Part shown: in pieces, positions 1,545-48,503 of the stretch
How positions within the stretch are numbered: the stretch's first letter is position 1
Layout: each line of letters starts with the position of its first letter
Virus record (IMG/VR): IMGVR_UViG_3300028886_000028
Location: 224,001-288,000 of that record
DNA from: a virus
Taxonomy: Duplodnaviria; Caudoviricetes
Strand: one strand, 5' to 3'
Length of the DNA: 64,000 nucleotides
Translations under genes and position numbers: made by a program
The notes under the pieces: generated by a model
Database searches by the model: none
Told to the model about the DNA's origin: nothing
Seen by the model: only the letters and a program-made list of their open reading frames with translations

Positions 1545-4036
1545 TGGCTAATTCTCTTATAGACGGTAAAGGTAGGCTAAATGTTGGAAATTACAATGAA
1601 AAGGTAAGGAAGCAACGTGAAACTTTTAGTAGAATTGATTCAACTATGGCGATTTTAGAAAAATTGCCAGATTTTACTGATTCTACTCTAGATTATTTAA
1701 ATGCCAATTCATTTACTTTTTCAACAAGTCCGCTTGGCTTTATTTTTAATATTTTAAAGTCTCTTGGAGTAGATGAAGAAACTCTTAAAGAATGGATTGT
1801 TGAAATTTTAGTTTATGTTTTGCCTACGGTCGAAACTGGCGTTAAAGCAACTTTATTAGCCAACATTAAATCTCTTATTTCTTGTAATTCTGACCCAAGG
1901 ATACCCCTTAGAATGAGGAAAAAAATTTCTAATAGCGTATACACTAATATACTGACTGATGTAGAGCAAACCGGGCCAATAAGGGGTATTGATATTAATA
2001 TAGATGCTATAGACCCACAAGGGTTACTTGATTTATCTCCATTTACTGACCCAGGCAAATTGTATTATTTTGGCTGCACTGATGACTCTGAACTTGATTC
2101 ATCAATTAAAAAGGTTGTATCAAAGTATGGCGATGAGTTGTATTTAGATACAAAAAGTGTTGTTGGTGACGCTAATGCAAGGACAGCAAGACTAGTAAGG
2201 GCTGATGATTTTAATGCTTTTCTTTGGTATGTTATACATAAAGGCAATAAACAAAATCCGGCTAGAGTAACTATAAATGGTAATACATTTAAAGTTGAAG
2301 ATGACGATTTAGAATATAGCATAAAAACTGGTAATTTAGGTTTACTTGGAACTCTTGAAATAGAAGCACCAAGTGATAAAGAATCAAATATAGTTGCTGG
2401 TAACACATTTTATGACTCTAACAACGCTAACTATATAGGAATATGCATAGAAAGTAAAGTAAATGATGAAGGAATAGTTACCGGCAATACTATAGTTCCA
2501 ATATCTTCTGATTGGTATAGTTGTAATTGGTATGTTGATAAAACAAATTATTATAGTTCTAATTTAGGTATAAAAAAAAGAAAGCCTAGAAATTATTCTG
2601 AAGAAAAGGCAATATGTAATTTAAGATATTGCAAGCAATTTGACTATAGAGGGCGTGATATACCTAATTCTCCTAACAATCTGAGATTTACAATCTTGCC
2701 TAAACCTTACGTGTTTTTGCCTTCTGTTGGCTCTGAAGGTGGCGGTATAAATAAATTGCATGTGCAGTGGAGGCCAATAAGATTAATGTTTGATTATGAT
2801 GGTACGCCTAATCAAAAAGGGAAGTTTTCATTAATATCAGAAACTTATGATTTGCAACCAACATTAAGGAATAAAACAGTTAGCGGAGAGTATTTTATTT
2901 ATGATGTATATGGAATTGAAGAAAATGGCGTTCATTCTAAAGGTGCTGAACTTAGAGTTAATACAAAAACAGGAGATTATTCATTACAAAATATAACAAA
3001 TTTAACATCTGTGTTGGTAGAATGTTATCCTGGTTTAAGTGTATATGAATTTAACTATGATTATATAATGGGTATGAAATTATTTGACCCAAAAGTAGTG
3101 TGCCAAAAGATTTTAGACAACGCGGCAAATCCTGATTATAATGTTTCATTCCATTACACATTAAACAAAGAAAAAATGCCTTTCATAGAAAAAAAGCAAA
3201 GAATTATAGAAATTGTAAAATCTATACTTGAAGAAGATGAAGATGAAATAACAGATTGCTTTTATGCGTTTTCTAATATTCAATATGATGAAATGCTCAG
3301 GAAAACTGAGGAAATAAAATATAAACAACTACCATATAATCAGGGGTATAATAATGGAGAAACAATTGATTTTACAGAGGTAAGCAAAATATTAGAAACA
3401 TATCCAGAAAATGGAAGCTTAGAGGACCAGAAAAAAGTTATAAACCACGCTTTAACAAAGGCTTGTGATTTATTAGATGAAAGAAATAATATTACAATAC
3501 CAACAGATAAAAGCACAACTAAAAATGAGTTTTTAACTAATATTTTACAGCAATTAGTTGCAGCAATAGTTGATGCAGTTCTAAGCCCAAAAGTTCTTAT
3601 GCTTCTTATAGTAAATAGGGCTTTAATGGACACAGATACAGAAGAGCCATTAGATACTGAGGCGTTAATGAGAATGTTGAAAAATGTAGTTAAATCATTA
3701 GTAAGAGAAGTAAGAGACTTAATTATAAAAAAATTACTCGATTACATAATAAAGTATTTAACTCCATTAGCTTTACAATTGCAAGCTAAAATATTAAGTG
3801 AACAATTTGCTGCATATATGGCTATAATTAGGCTTTTACTTTCTTGGTTTAATAAGGGAGTTGAAGTAACTTCTAGATTAAATTCAGTTTTGTCTTCTAT
3901 GCTTAGTAAATTCAAGAAAAAAGGGTATGGAGATTTAACAGAAATTGATTTACCATCAATTTTGGATGATTTCACTTATGCTGATATTTACCCAATTGAT
4001 ACTAAAGATAAAGAACCAGTAAATAATAATTGTTAA
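1544..4036 (+). CDS. large hypothetical protein, probably virion-associated
   Basis: 830 aa ORF coupled to neighbours, upstream of spike-like gene; function inferred from context. Confidence 0.6.
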   Translation: MANSLIDGKGRLNVGNYNEKVRKQRETFSRIDSTMAILEKLPDFTDSTLDYLNANSFTFSTSPLGFIFNILKSLGVDEETLKEWIVEILVYVLPTVETGVKATLLANIKSLISCNSDPRIPLRMRKKISNSVYTNILTDVEQTGPIRGIDINIDAIDPQGLLDLSPFTDPGKLYYFGCTDDSELDSSIKKVVSKYGDELYLDTKSVVGDANARTARLVRADDFNAFLWYVIHKGNKQNPARVTINGNTFKVEDDDLEYSIKTGNLGLLGTLEIEAPSDKESNIVAGNTFYDSNNANYIGICIESKVNDEGIVTGNTIVPISSDWYSCNWYVDKTNYYSSNLGIKKRKPRNYSEEKAICNLRYCKQFDYRGRDIPNSPNNLRFTILPKPYVFLPSVGSEGGGINKLHVQWRPIRLMFDYDGTPNQKGKFSLISETYDLQPTLRNKTVSGEYFIYDVYGIEENGVHSKGAELRVNTKTGDYSLQNITNLTSVLVECYPGLSVYEFNYDYIMGMKLFDPKVVCQKILDNAANPDYNVSFHYTLNKEKMPFIEKKQRIIEIVKSILEEDEDEITDCFYAFSNIQYDEMLRKTEEIKYKQLPYNQGYNNGETIDFTEVSKILETYPENGSLEDQKKVINHALTKACDLLDERNNITIPTDKSTTKNEFLTNILQQLVAAIVDAVLSPKVLMLLIVNRALMDTDTEEPLDTEALMRMLKNVVKSLVREVRDLIIKKLLDYIIKYLTPLALQLQAKILSEQFAAYMAIIRLLLSWFNKGVEVTSRLNSVLSSMLSKFKKKGYGDLTEIDLPSILDDFTYADIYPIDTKDKEPVNNNC

Positions 4037-5602: not shown

Positions 5603-7108
5603 ATGTATTATAGAACATATGTTAGCAAAATGTGTAGTATAATTAAAGATTCAGATTTAAACACATCTTTAAATCCTGTATCTGAACTTTTATACGGAAA
5701 AAATACGTCAAGAGTACTTTTATATTTTGACCACTATAAAATAAAGCAAATGATGGAAGATGGCACAATGCCGGATAAATCAAAAATAAAACATATTCTT
5801 AAAATAACCAATGCAGGCTCTTTAGATTTTACTCTGTTAAATCATAAAGATACAAGTTCAGTTAATGGGTGCATTAGAAAAAGAGCATCATCATTTGATT
5901 TAATCTTTTTTTTAATACCAAAAACTTGGGATGCCGGTAAAGGATTTGATTATTCAAGAAGCATATTTCAAGAAGACTTTTATGATACAAAATCAGAAGG
6001 TTGGGGAAATAGACTTATATCAACAGATGGGTGTAATTGGTTTCAAAGAAGAAATGGGTTAAAATGGGATGAACCTGGGATTTATTCTAACAATAAATTA
6101 TCTGAAGAATATGATAATTTTTCATCAAAAAATGGAAGCGAAATTGTTTTTGCTAGGCAAAGATTTGAAGTTGGTGGGGAAAATATAAATCTTGATATAA
6201 CAGATATAGTTAACAAATTTGTTTCAGGGGAAATTCAAAACAATGGCATAGGCATAGCATTTACGCCTGCATTAGAACGCATAGGAGAAGATAAAAGAAG
6301 CCTATTAAGCAGCATAGAAAATTATCTTGGCTTATTTTCCAATAAAACAAATACGTTTTTTGAACCTTTTGTTGAAACCCATTATCAAGACTATATAAAT
6401 GATGATAGGGCAAATTTTGTTTTAAATAAAGACAATAAATTGTATTTGTACTGTAATTTAGGCGGTCAATTAACAGATTTAGACGAACTTCCTCTAGTCA
6501 CAGTAACAGATACAAATGAAGAAGTTGTAACTGATGCTAATGGAATGCTACTTGAAAATATTGAAGCAAAACATTTTTCTAAAGGCGTTTATTATTTAGA
6601 TTTAAAAATAACAGGAAGAGAAGCAGATACAATGTTATTTGATACATGGAGCAACATTAAGTATCAAGGAAGTGATTTAGATAATGTTGAACTAGATTTT
6701 ACTCTAAAAAATGTTAACATGTTCTTCAATATAGGAAATAAACTTGAATCTAATGAAAGATTTACTCCAAATACAAGTGGAATAAATGACAGTGAAGATA
6801 TTAAACGTGGAGATATTAGGAAACTTAAAATTACTGCTCGTGTACAGTATTCTACGCAAGATTATGAACTTATAAATGGCATAGAAACAAGATTGTATGT
6901 CAGAGACGGAACAAGAGAATTAGATGTTTTTCCTTGGGAACCTGTTAATAAAACTTTTTTGGAAAATTATGTGTTAATTGATACAAGCATTTTAATACCT
7001 CAAAGATATTATGTTGATATTAAAATAAAATACGGAATGGAAGAAATAATACATCATGATGTATTACATTTTAATATTGTGGATGATATTAATAATAAAT
7101 ACGCATAA
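5603..7108 (+). CDS. hypothetical protein, putative structural
   Basis: 501 aa, preceded by GATATTTATA late-type motif. Confidence 0.6.
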   Translation: MYYRTYVSKMCSIIKDSDLNTSLNPVSELLYGKNTSRVLLYFDHYKIKQMMEDGTMPDKSKIKHILKITNAGSLDFTLLNHKDTSSVNGCIRKRASSFDLIFFLIPKTWDAGKGFDYSRSIFQEDFYDTKSEGWGNRLISTDGCNWFQRRNGLKWDEPGIYSNNKLSEEYDNFSSKNGSEIVFARQRFEVGGENINLDITDIVNKFVSGEIQNNGIGIAFTPALERIGEDKRSLLSSIENYLGLFSNKTNTFFEPFVETHYQDYINDDRANFVLNKDNKLYLYCNLGGQLTDLDELPLVTVTDTNEEVVTDANGMLLENIEAKHFSKGVYYLDLKITGREADTMLFDTWSNIKYQGSDLDNVELDFTLKNVNMFFNIGNKLESNERFTPNTSGINDSEDIKRGDIRKLKITARVQYSTQDYELINGIETRLYVRDGTRELDVFPWEPVNKTFLENYVLIDTSILIPQRYYVDIKIKYGMEEIIHHDVLHFNIVDDINNKYA

Positions 7109-7136
7109 AAAATGCAGCTAGAAATAGCTGCATTTT
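7109..7136. terminator. bidirectional intrinsic terminator
   Basis: aaaaatgcagcta-gaaa-tagctgcatttt between convergent genes. Confidence 0.8.
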
Positions 7137-7149
7137 CTATTTAAAATTG

Positions 7150-7689
7150 TTAATTGTAATAAAATATATTATTGTAATTGAAATCTTTTAGTTCAGAATG
7201 ATAATCTTGTACTTCTACCATCATATTAGGTATAAGGTCAAGAGAATAATGCCTCATACAATATTCCAAATCGCTAGCAAATTGCCTATTACAATCATAT
7301 ATGTTTTCTCCTATAACATCAATACCTAACATATCTGCTTCGCTTTTTTCGCTAACTATCATTCCAGAAAACAATCCTTTTAGGTTATACTTTTCTGCAA
7401 ATTCATTAGCGTTGCACCATATGCCTATACATGTATGTTCTTTTAATAGATAAACAAGTCTATCGTCTACAATAGTTCTAGCAAACTGATTATCTCCATA
7501 TGGAGCAAATAAGCCTCCATTATAACCGTGCCCAAGCATCATTACTATTTCTTCTTTAGGGGCACTTCCAATAGCCTCTCTAATACTTCTATTATTCCAC
7601 GTTTCGTCTATTAAAGTAACGTCCTTCTTCCCGGCGTATATCTTCGTCAAAAAAGAAGTCGTTTTGTCTTTTGGATGAATCACTATCAT
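7150..7689 (-). CDS. hypothetical protein
   Basis: 179 aa ORF. Confidence 0.7.
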   Translation of the reverse strand: MIVIHPKDKTTSFLTKIYAGKKDVTLIDETWNNRSIREAIGSAPKEEIVMMLGHGYNGGLFAPYGDNQFARTIVDDRLVYLLKEHTCIGIWCNANEFAEKYNLKGLFSGMIVSEKSEADMLGIDVIGENIYDCNRQFASDLEYCMRHYSLDLIPNMMVEVQDYHSELKDFNYNNIFYYN

Positions 7690-34345: not shown

Positions 34346-34458
34346 AGGAGTCTAACAGCATATGTATAATTACGACGGTTAGCTTAGTGGTTAAAGCCTT
34401 GGATTTTACTAAGAGACGTTGGTTCGAATCCAGCACCACCGGGTTTAAAATGACTCCT
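34346..34458 (+). ncRNA. ACAGCA cassette 4 with degenerate tRNA-Lys(TTT)-like body
   Basis: aggagtc/gactcct; D- and T-arms intact, acceptor mismatched, 6-nt anticodon loop. Confidence 0.8.
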
Positions 34459-41242: not shown

Positions 41243-41539
41243 ATGAAAAATAATTGCAATAGAACTAAGTTGTTTAGGTTTTTAAAAGAACGAAATATAT
41301 TTAAGCCTTTTATTAAGGCATTTTATGACGAATATCAAATTAATACAAGAGTTGAATGGTGTGACACAAGCCATAAATTTAACGGCCATGTACCCGCATC
41401 AATTTATGATTATTGCTATGAAATAAATTGTATTGAAGAAATTATCAATTACGCTTTTGAATGGGAAAAAACAGCACAGGGGTATGATTTTTGGTCAAGG
41501 GTAAATAGAGAGTGGAGGTATTATTGCGATAGCAATTAA
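41243..41539 (+). CDS. hypothetical protein (RFLKE family)
   Basis: LFRFLKERNIF ... FEWEKTAQGYDFW. Confidence 0.6.
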   Translation: MKNNCNRTKLFRFLKERNIFKPFIKAFYDEYQINTRVEWCDTSHKFNGHVPASIYDYCYEINCIEEIINYAFEWEKTAQGYDFWSRVNREWRYYCDSN

Positions 41540-41599
41540 TAAAATTTAACATAAAATATTTTGTTATCAAAATTTTTTTATGTATATTTGCGCAAAAAT

Positions 41600-41673
41600 T
41601 GGGAGTTAGCACAGTTGGTTAGTGCAGCTGACTGTTAATCAGCAGGTCGTGGGTTCGAGTCCCACACTCCCAG
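41600..41673 (+). tRNA. tRNA-Asn(GTT)
   Basis: gctga-ctgttaa-tcagc. Confidence 0.92.
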
Positions 41674-41680
41674 CACAAAT

Positions 41681-42519
41681 GGTGAGGTGGCAGAGTGGTC
41701 GATTGCACCGGTCTTGCGCCTAATTCGAGTGCTATGGCGAAAAATCCCATAGTAGAATCTCCCTAAAACGGTGGAAGTCCTTTGAGACTCCTATGAGAAT
41801 CCTTGTTGATTCAATAATGAGGTGACAATAATAACAAACACTAACCAATAATGTGTAAGGATAATACCGTGCTAAATTGAGAATAATACTAAAATTTATC
41901 ATATATGAGATAACAAATAGAGGAAACTAAATATGGTACTTGCGCAAAATTTTAGTTAGTATTAAAAATGAGTTGTATTCTTATATGGTAGACAGCCATT
42001 AAGTTGAGACGCTTAGTATAAATATGAGCATCAGGCGAGAGTGGGTTCAAACACCACCAACTCATTTATAAATTGAAAAGCATACAGAATATCCAAAAGT
42101 ATGTAAAAAGACGATGGTGCAACATAGTCAATTTTTAATTTATTTCTCATAAATGTGTAGAGAGTATATAGGAGATACCTAAGTTGAAATTAATTTGAGG
42201 GAAAGTACTCAGCGTAGTAATACGTAATACATGAAAATTGTATTTTAAAGGAGGTTTGCCAATTGGGATAGCCCTATCAAATTACTTGCAAGAATTTCAA
42301 TATGGTAAATATGTATTCCAGACTACAACGAACATAGGAGAAATAGCGAGGAGATAGTTCAAGACTAGAGCAGCAGTTCTTGTAAACTGAAGACAGTGGG
42401 TGTAATTCCCACACTTTTCGCCACGACTTTCTTCTAAATTTGGTTATGGCAACATAAAGTAGCAAGGAAAACCGGCGGACGTGACGAGCGTTCCGGGGGT
42501 TCGAATCCCTCCCTCACCG
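41681..42519 (+). tRNA. tRNA-Ser(TGA) split by an intron (exons 41681-41715, 42467-42519)
   Basis: Joining exons gives ccggt-cttgaaa-accgg, ggtgagg/cctcacc acceptor, long variable arm, G73. Confidence 0.9.
41716..42466 (+). mobile_element. group I intron (751 nt, no endonuclease ORF)
   Basis: Exon ends in U with P1 cttg/cgag; P3 atctcc/ggagat; Q-like aataccgtgctaa; R-like gtagagagtata and S-like aatatgtattcc with compensatory P7; ends in G. Confidence 0.85.
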
Positions 42520-42522
42520 CAT

Positions 42523-42873
42523 ATGATAAAACTTGAACATTTTAAAAAAGGCAATTATTATTATATAAATGCTTATAGTGGTGATACTAGAGTTGGAAAA
42601 CTTGGTATTGAATACAGAGGAAGCCAAAATATACATATTAATTATGTTATCACTAGCGTAAGTTACACCGGAAAAGGTATTGCTACTATGATGATTAACA
42701 AGGCTATTGAATTATTTAAAGGATATGATATAAGTCTTTATGTAGTACCAATGCCTAGGAGTGAAGAAAAAATTAAATATAAAACAATAAAAGGCCTTTC
42801 TGAATTTTACAATAAGTTTGGGTTTGTTCGTACTGATGACCCTTGTTTAGTTGAAATGATATTAAAAAGATGA
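42523..42873 (+). CDS. GNAT acetyltransferase
   Basis: YTGKGIAT acetyl-CoA motif, FYNKFGF; ORF-track start lies inside the tRNA, so start moved to 42523. Confidence 0.8.
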   Translation: MIKLEHFKKGNYYYINAYSGDTRVGKLGIEYRGSQNIHINYVITSVSYTGKGIATMMINKAIELFKGYDISLYVVPMPRSEEKIKYKTIKGLSEFYNKFGFVRTDDPCLVEMILKR

Positions 42874-44127: not shown

Positions 44128-44249
44128 AGGAAACTAACAGCAAGGTTAAAAATGGCTTGTAACCCGTGGGTCACAGGTTCGAATCCTGTCTTAGGCTTTA
44201 AAAGTCTGGGTAGCTCAGTTGGCAGAGCAACGTTAATAAAATGTTTCCT
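44128..44249 (+). ncRNA. ACAGCAA cassette 7 with circularly permuted tRNA-Thr(TGT)
   Basis: aggaaac/gtttcct; gg-cttgtaa-cccgt, T-arm, acceptor closed by ttaaa, D-arm, acg. Confidence 0.9.
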
Positions 44250-48430: not shown

Positions 48431-48503
48431 GCTCCGTTAGCTCAGTTGGAAGAGCACTAGATTTGTAATCCTGAGGTCGTGGGTTCAAGTCCCGCACGGA
48501 GCT
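48431..48503 (+). tRNA. tRNA-Thr(TGT), weak anticodon stem
   Basis: ctaga-tttgtaa-tcctg (two mismatches). Confidence 0.75.

Follow-up and report, generated by a model that had tools for sequence, protein, structure and literature searches.

The stretch of DNA considered here (the window, 64,000 nucleotides in full) comprises bases 224001-288000 of a 401,138-bp virus record, IMGVR_UViG_3300028886_000028, which belongs to a rumen phage. A dense array of 25 transfer RNA (tRNA) genes and a transfer-messenger RNA (tmRNA) gene, all on the + strand, occupies the window from 32.4 to 50.6 kb. Within this array, 3' of tRNA-Asn, the two halves of a class II tRNA are found, a 5' half at 41681-41715 and a matching 3' half at 42467-42519. 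When introns are allowed, ARAGORN reads them as a tRNA-Ser(tga) gene with a 751-nucleotide (nt) intron after tRNA position 35, that is, between U34 and G35. The intron is of the group I type, has no open reading frame (ORF) of its own and bears a tRNA-shaped fold at the tip of one of its outer helices. This nested fold, which an earlier note on the same DNA had described as a tRNA inside the intron of a tRNA, is the subject of the present analysis. The main features of the locus are as follows.

41681-41715, + strand: 5' exon of tRNA-Ser(UGA), ending in ...ggtcTT (U34), from ARAGORN with introns allowed and from the sequence.
41716-42466, + strand: ORF-less group I intron of 751 nt, with a core that we take to be td/IA-like and large inserts in P5, P6, P8 and P9.1.
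42346-42423, + strand: tRNA-like cloverleaf, acceptor stem 42348-54/42413-19, lengthened by gc/gc.
Parts of the cloverleaf: D-arm 42357-71; anticodon-like arm 42373-90; variable loop 42391-95; T-arm 42396-412; G73 42420; CCA 42421-23.
42467-42519, + strand: 3' exon of tRNA-Ser(UGA), with the anticodon bases GA, a long variable arm, the T-arm, the acceptor strand and the discriminator G.

All the stems and loops that the earlier note had listed are present in the sequence. They are the acceptor-like strands gcgaggag (42346-53) and cttttcgc (42414-21), the D-arm strands gttc (42357-60) and gagc (42368-71), the anticodon-like hairpin cagtt-cttgta-aactg (42374-89), the T-arm strands gtggg (42396-400) and cccac (42408-12), the 3' gcca (42420-23) and, below the cloverleaf, an outer helix of aggagaaa (42336-43) with tttcttct (42428-35). 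By minimum free energy, 42346-42423 folds into the cloverleaf itself (-22.8 kcal/mol, z = -2.1), and in the fold of the longer segment 42318-42466 it is retained on top of the outer helix. The Rfam tRNA model (RF00005) matches 42348-42420 over its full length with 30.0 bits, against a gathering threshold of 29, which gives an E-value of 0.031 for the whole 64-kb window and of 0.00063 for the 1.3-kb region. On these grounds, the nesting of a tRNA-shaped element in the intron of the tRNA-Ser(UGA) gene is upheld.

Its capacity to decode is another matter. Depending on the register of the stem, the anticodon-like loop has eight (UCUUGUAA) or six (CUUGUA) nucleotides rather than seven, both in the window and in a free-standing homolog described below. 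Of the loops that make up the tRNA elbow, the D-loop AAGACUA has no GG (G18G19) and the T-loop, UGUAAUU in the window and UGCAAUU in the homolog, has no T-Psi-C. An A7-A66 mismatch closes the acceptor stem and is conserved in both copies. ARAGORN calls neither the window element nor the homolog. Because of the loop size, the D-loop, the T-loop, the A-A mismatch and the ARAGORN rejection, the element is not a decoding tRNA. It is tRNA-shaped and not a working tRNA; the reading of the earlier note is thus supported in part.

The loop holds the CUUGUAA of tRNA-Thr(UGU), and the best real tRNA in the phage genome for the element's own model is tRNA-Thr(tgt) at 48431, with 38 bits. Taken together, these two observations make a Thr-type origin plausible. 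Several other kinships were considered and rejected. None of the other tRNAs of the window is a close paralogue, and a permuted tRNA-Thr mimic at 44128 is unrelated to the element, its loops being canonical. The YrlA model (RF02553) finds no match in 41500-42800 at E-values up to 10, the ACAGCAA handle of the window's cassettes is absent from the element, and the match to the Rfam Tymo_tRNA-like model (15 bits, E = 2.9) is insignificant. Complementary loop sequences elsewhere in the intron, such as AAUUAC at 42281-86 for the element's GUAAUU, occur at the chance level for AT-rich sequence.

The strongest comparative evidence comes from another rumen phage. A 16-mer from the anticodon-like arm has 31 matches in IMG/VR, and a single one of them (L033) extends further, over 70 bases at 93% identity that cover the cloverleaf only; the other 30 matches are due to chance. 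The same sequence is also found on two further contigs, of 102 kb (L083) and 2.6 kb (L085). When the 102-kb contig is compared with the genome of the window, the cloverleaf is the sole match and the flanks are unrelated. The homolog lies outside any intron of the family to which the window intron belongs. This copy scores 43.9 bits with RF00005 and stands on its own 14-bp stalk (z = -5.2), with none of the shuffled sequences folding equally well. It starts directly after the stop codon of a 204-aa gene for which no Pfam or PHROG family and no homolog in the window phage were found. In the 102-kb contig, the homolog opens a non-coding stretch of about 950 nt (6616-7560), which runs up to a 130-aa ORF that we take, judging from its residues, to be a primase. 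At least four further long folds occur in this stretch, with an acceptor-like stem, a canonical GGUUCGA T-arm and an expanded middle; none of them is called as a normal tRNA.

The window copy and the homolog differ at eight positions. Six of these are in stems, and none breaks a pair. Four of the eight form two double compensatory changes in the acceptor stem, from G4.U69 to U4-A69 and from A5-U68 to G5-C68. The remaining differences turn a U.G pair of the D-stem into C-G and a G-A mismatch of the anticodon-like stem into U-A, alter one T-loop base and change the last base, CCA against CCG. In a simulation with eight random substitutions, two or more double compensations arose in about 0.2% of trials (p ~0.002). 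All four loops are identical between the copies except for one base, and G73-C74-C75 is conserved in both, with the full CCA encoded in the window. The compensatory changes argue that the cloverleaf is under selection for pairing in at least one of its two settings. The earlier note had named an ordinary P9 extension with no conserved cloverleaf as the outcome that would count against its reading; the cloverleaf is conserved in the homolog.

Further changes are seen in a strain variant from a rumen RNA sequencing run (X2). One of them, T42358C, converts the D-stem U.G pair into C-G, as in the copy of the other phage, and the other, C42450T, changes the loop of the neighbouring hairpin P9.2 from GCAA to GUAA and so keeps the GNRA motif. 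When a covariance model was derived from the two copies, it retrieved nothing but ordinary tRNAs from 46 related loci and the phage genome, and nothing from the other P9.1 inserts.

The element sits in the 3'-terminal P9 domain, at the tip of the intron helix P9.1, a position that follows from covariation of P7, P9, P9.1 and P9.2 among 31 distinct family members. The placement in the P9 region on an extra helix is thereby borne out, the helix being P9.1. In one relative (L072), the P9.1 tip is a small hairpin only. Because the tips range from such a short hairpin up to some 160 unrelated bases, catalysis can probably do without the module. A second tRNA-like case was found at the same tip. In nine crAss-like tRNA-Leu(UAA) introns, the P9.1 insert combines a GGGUUCGAAUCCC T-arm and a long variable region with a D-arm that hardly differs from the one in the host tRNA-Leu. 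Two full-length RF00005 matches among these Leu-derived inserts reach 34.1 and 33.0 bits, and in them the upper part of P9.1 takes the place of the acceptor stem. The Leu-derived insert is unrelated in sequence to the window module, and therefore tRNA-shaped tips arose at least two times in the intron family.

The intron itself is not recognized by the Rfam group I model: Intron_gpI (RF00028) has no match in the intron region or in two crAss-like relatives at E-values up to 10, which is likely explained by the large inserts in four helices. For this reason, group I membership is judged from the P1 helix, the terminal guanosine (omega-G) and the core helices, which were mapped by covariation in about 40 relatives and are listed below. 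The intron core is single-copy in the phage genome.

41727-41729, + strand: internal guide GAG; together with exon CUU (41713-15) it makes up P1, which includes a U-1.G pair; family covariation, read by eye.
41733-51: P2.
41757-41762, + strand: 5' strand of P3, AUCUCC, with its partner GGAGAU at 42171-76; a perfect 6-bp complement at canonical positions.
42162-42167, + strand: 5' strand of P7, GAGUAU, with its partner GUAUUC at 42313-18; covariation.
42178-91 with 42292-305: P8.
42313-42318, + strand: 3' strand of P7, with A-rich J8/7 just before it.
42323-42326, + strand: 5' strand of P9, CUAC, with its partner GUAG at 42459-62; covariation.
42329-42343, + strand: 5' strand of P9.1 (cgaa, loop cau, aggagaaa); fold and covariation of the helix base.
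42428-42442, + strand: 3' strand of P9.1 (uuucuucu, loop aaa, uuug).
42444-42457, + strand: hairpin P9.2, uuaug-GCAA-cauaa, with a GNRA loop.
42459-42466, + strand: 3' strand of P9, GUAG, then caa, then omega-G (42466).

At the 5' splice site, U41715 pairs with G41727 of the guide. Exon and guide covary, when read by eye, as CUU/GAG in the window and in two relatives (L045, L039), UCU/GGA in two others (L038, L052) and CAU/GUG in one (L037). At the 3' end, the intron finishes with G42466, and the relatives likewise end in G where the ARAGORN 3' boundary follows P9; three ARAGORN 3' boundaries (L040, L073 and the L047 type) appear displaced. P3 rests on complementarity, the 3' strand having been fixed in the family search pattern, and P4-P6 lie in the 5' half of the intron with long inserts. 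The variable pair of P7 is C-G in 18, G.U in 12 and A-U in one of the 31 distinct family members, with no mismatch, its partner column having been re-read by hand. P9 is the closing helix 3' of P7 and encloses the long P9.1 and the short P9.2; its variable pair is C-G in 18, U-A in eight and U.G in five of the same members, again with no mismatch. The base of P9.1 covaries strongly in the family (e.g., CAAACAA/UUGUUUG, CAACCAA/UUGGUUG, AACUUAA/UUAAGUU, CCACUUA/UAAGUGG). In window-type members, P9.2 reads cuaug-GUAA/GCAA-cauag, and its closing pair covaries from C-G to U-A. The order of helices (P1, P2, P3, P4, P5, P6, P7, P3', P8, P7', P9), assigned by eye, is that of the canonical pseudoknotted core, which presumably resembles the phage td/IA type. 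An alternative assignment, with CCAGACUAC as P7 and the helix of the element as P8, was dropped; the block GA(C/G)UAU covaries with AUAGUC/GUAUUC. Under translation table 11, the intron has no ORF longer than 62 aa. When TAG is read as glutamine, the largest intron frame has 102 aa, lies on the minus strand at 41639-41947, needs three recoded TAGs and extends beyond the intron. The insert in P6 (window 41966-42067) forms a second four-way junction with a 10-bp closing stem and three hairpins, one of them with a GUUCAAA loop (z = -2.9); the tRNA model has no match to it at E-values up to 10.

Rumen and bovine gut metatranscriptomes contain pieces of the intron region, and contigs of four rumen metatranscriptomes from four studies were placed on 41560-42620. 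The conserved core blocks have very deep contig cover, which comes from many family members. A 378-nt contig of one run (X1, record 3) reads 42280-42466 and then directly 41983-42173, without mismatches and at depth 43. The back-join thus leads from the last G of the intron (42466) to A41983, just after CUU (41980-82), a repeat of the triplet with which the 5' exon ends and the guide pairs. In this run, 41983-42466 is covered and 41884-41982 is essentially uncovered. The cloverleaf is uninterrupted within the back-join contig. Such a join is what one would expect of omega-G attack on an internal mimic of the 5' splice site, and it implies a 5'-truncated circle:

41983-42466, + strand: back-joined (circular) intron RNA of 484 nt, cut after CUU 41980-82, from the X1 contig.

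The formation of 5'-truncated circles by omega-G attack is established group I intron chemistry (PMC13168695). The excised intron RNA therefore appears to persist as a circle in the rumen, and the suggestion that the excised intron could deliver a tRNA mimic gains indirect support from the 42466-to-41983 contig, in which the element is intact. The cut is unusually deep: 267 nt of the intron precede it, among them the guide and the 5' strands of P3-P6. The circularisation site falls in the first hairpin of the P6-insert junction. In the strain-variant run, a 315-nt contig of the variant covers 42207-42513, including the cloverleaf and the 3' splice site, and represents either precursor RNA or DNA. 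None of the four runs has a contig with the ligated exons of this tRNA-Ser(UGA). A joint of 41716 with 42492 (X1) and a loose end at 42489 (X4) were considered as spliced tRNA-Ser(UGA) and assigned to another tRNA, since the variable arm is different. In the two runs X4 and X10, no contigs lie over 42352-42459, other window-specific parts of the intron being covered; this gap is uninformative on cleavage.

The intron proved to be a member of a larger family. In two crAss-like phages (L001 and L002: cr116_1 and IAS virus), the primase gene is split by an unannotated gap that a 53-base stretch of the intron matches, and a degenerate pattern derived from this stretch yields 43 loci in IMG/VR. In most of these loci, the element splits a tRNA gene, namely Leu(taa), Arg(tct), Lys(ttt), Met(cat), Ser and one with the anticodon tta, and the introns of the relatives are about 460-600 nt long. 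The members (L036-L078) are spread over many gut and rumen phages. Their split tRNAs are uncalled by default tRNA finders. No account of this intron family in phage tRNA genes was found in a limited library of literature that included PMC7886860 (on crAss-like phage introns), Williams 2020 (on group I introns of tRNAs) and PMC13168695 (on circularisation). Some individual loci may be of interest in their own right. The tRNA with the anticodon tta (L042, IMGVR_UViG_3300045988_127185, about 341-1001 of the extract) is interrupted by a 572-nt family intron with putative splice boundaries (ARAGORN); read as a tRNA for the stop codon UAA, it is a possible suppressor tRNA whose supply would depend on splicing. 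Beside another intron-bearing tRNA array (L073), two sub-threshold YrlA matches are seen at 637-765 and 3448-3561 on the minus strand, with 41 and 31 bits (cut-off 69). In the array of the window itself, ARAGORN reports at 34373-34442 a non-standard tRNA of undetermined type with a short anticodon loop and a two-base "anticodon" (tt).

The intron shares several properties with the classical group I introns of tRNA genes. It is ORF-less, it is inserted in the anticodon loop between nucleotides 34 and 35 as in the classical Leu(UAA) intron, its U-1 pairs with a guide G, its last base is G, and the excised intron appears to circularise. It differs from them in that it is phage-encoded, interrupts tRNA-Ser(UGA), reaches 751 nt with four expanded outer helices, has a core that is presumably td/IA-like rather than of the small IC3 type and bears a tRNA-shaped fold on one helix. 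In the limited library, nothing was found on tRNA-like folds nested within peripheral helices of group I introns.

Peripheral extensions such as P9.1 and P9.2, known for example from Tetrahymena, are 3'-terminal accessory helices after P7 that vary in length and sequence. The GNRA loop on P9.2 of the window intron is of the core-docking kind found there, whereas its P9.1 is capped by a four-way junction, with an independent tRNA-like RNA of another phage as its homolog, and not by a hairpin or kissing loop. YrlA-type Y RNAs (RF02553) are reportedly bacterial and phage RNAs with a tRNA-like domain. Like them, the window element is a non-decoding tRNA mimic on a helical stalk; in contrast to YrlA, which is joined via the anticodon side, its acceptor end enters the stalk and its anticodon-like arm is closed. 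Other tRNA-like folds in longer RNAs are the mascRNA of MALAT1, which is cut by ribonuclease P (RNase P), the 3' tRNA-like structures of the turnip yellow mosaic virus (TYMV) type and the tRNA-like domain of tmRNA. The likeness lies in the mimic of the acceptor and T-arm within a larger RNA, which could be a substrate of RNase P, but no sequence relationship was found, and the host RNA is here a putatively self-splicing intron. Some group I introns need tRNA synthetases, namely CYT-18 or mitochondrial leucyl-tRNA synthetase (LeuRS). Their link between group I introns and recognition by tRNA-binding proteins may have a parallel here; there, the intron core is bound like a tRNA, while here a discrete cloverleaf is placed on an outer helix.

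How might such an arrangement have come about, and what could it be for? A self-folding cloverleaf of tRNA origin would have been captured ready-made from the pool of tRNA and tRNA-mimic genes that these phages possess and grafted onto a td-like group I intron, at the tip of its hypervariable outer helix P9.1. A part in the ribozyme or a role as a translation tRNA is unlikely. The likeliest role, which we put forward tentatively and at somewhat less than an even chance, is that of a tRNA mimic shown on long-lived excised or circular intron RNA, where a protein that recognises tRNAs may use it as a handle or be decoyed by it; RNase P, a modification enzyme and a defence nuclease directed at tRNAs are examples. 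Structural selection, the near-identical loops of the two copies and the repeated appearance of tRNA folds at the same tip speak for a function. A bolder version of this idea, which we regard as unlikely, is that the family at large uses the P9.1 tip to show tRNA mimics and that the spliced intron is a nuclease-resistant circular decoy that sequesters or recruits a tRNA-recognising factor of the host, for instance RNase P, a tRNA-cleaving defence nuclease or a modification enzyme. The main competitor is a possible, though less probable, explanation: the module would be a neutral passenger, a tRNA-derived sequence that recombined into a permissive loop, is tolerated since it folds by itself and has no function in the intron. 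Several observations favour a passenger or weigh against a displayed mimic. The tips of P9.1 are hypervariable, about 30-160 nt long, unrelated between lineages and mostly not tRNA-like, so that the insert might simply be tolerated. As possible donors, tRNA and tRNA-like genes abound in the phage and its relatives. The window copy is more degenerate than the free-standing one (30 against 44 bits), with an extra G26-A43 mismatch and two extra wobble pairs. Only two lineages of the module were found, exact and degenerate patterns having revealed no third in IMG/VR or the metagenomes of the Joint Genome Institute (JGI) and nothing in GTDB genomes. Among the crAss-type inserts (the group L045-L068), one member (L048) lacks precisely the D-loop and the T-loop, the partners of the tRNA elbow, and other members have shorter arms or lack parts of the middle arms; the loss of these loops points to a weak constraint on the tRNA-like inserts there. 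As for the circle, it comes from a single contig of one run, Logan contigs show no RNA ends, and an RNA library may hold DNA. Any partner or effect of the module is putative. The passenger explanation, however, has to account for the two double compensatory changes in the acceptor stem, for a strain variant that strengthens the D-stem, for the gain of tRNA-like folds at the P9.1 tip at least twice and for loops that are the same in both copies but for one base.

Three other explanations have been weighed beside the displayed mimic. The element might be a handle for RNase P, whose cleavage, together with a 3' nuclease, would open and destabilise the excised or circular intron, with consequences for turnover and a block to reverse splicing, or would free a tRNA-like small RNA of 73-76 nt. 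The earlier note had raised a cut by RNase P; we consider such a handle improbable. The 7-bp acceptor stem stacked on the 5-bp T-stem, the G73-C74-C75 kept in both copies with CCA in the window, the GCC of the free-standing copy in an internal loop opposite ACA and the precedent of mascRNA, which is released from MALAT1, would all suit this enzyme. Nevertheless, positions -1 and -2 of the window can pair with G73 and C74 and thereby lengthen the acceptor stem, and RNA contigs from two runs cross both ends of the element, with which partial cleavage is still compatible. A genuine nested tRNA-Thr(UGU) matured from the intron, or a tRNA with an 8-nt anticodon loop that reads frameshifts or quadruplets, would fit the CUUGUAA loop, the best match to tRNA-Thr(tgt), the G1-C72 pair, G73 and the encoded CCA. 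It is very improbable in view of the loop of six or eight nucleotides that is forced in both copies, the D-loop without GG, the UG(U/C)AAUU T-loop, the A7-A66 mismatch and the rejection of both copies by ARAGORN; moreover, the other copy ends in CCG, and ARAGORN finds that the phage already encodes a canonical tRNA-Thr(UGU). A chance cloverleaf in an AT-rich peripheral helix is hardly credible and the least likely of all. A score of one bit over the Rfam cut-off, a modest z of -2.1 and 10 of 200 shuffles that fold equally well would allow it, but a 43.9-bit homolog with compensatory changes in another context refutes it in our view.

The introns described here make up a widespread and unannotated family in phage tRNA genes that has been overlooked by the Rfam group I model and by default tRNA finders. 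On an outer helix of one of its members, there is a tRNA-shaped fold that is probably under structural selection, and the same or an analogous fold recurs in other phages. If the fold is a passenger only, it shows that tRNA modules move between phage RNAs. If it has a partner, it would represent a new route by which phages deploy tRNA mimics, beside the tRNA arrays of the same genome, and bacterial viruses would offer a natural case of a circular RNA scaffold. Should the circular-decoy interpretation be true, a phage would be putting the "waste" intron of its tRNA gene to work as a circular decoy RNA.

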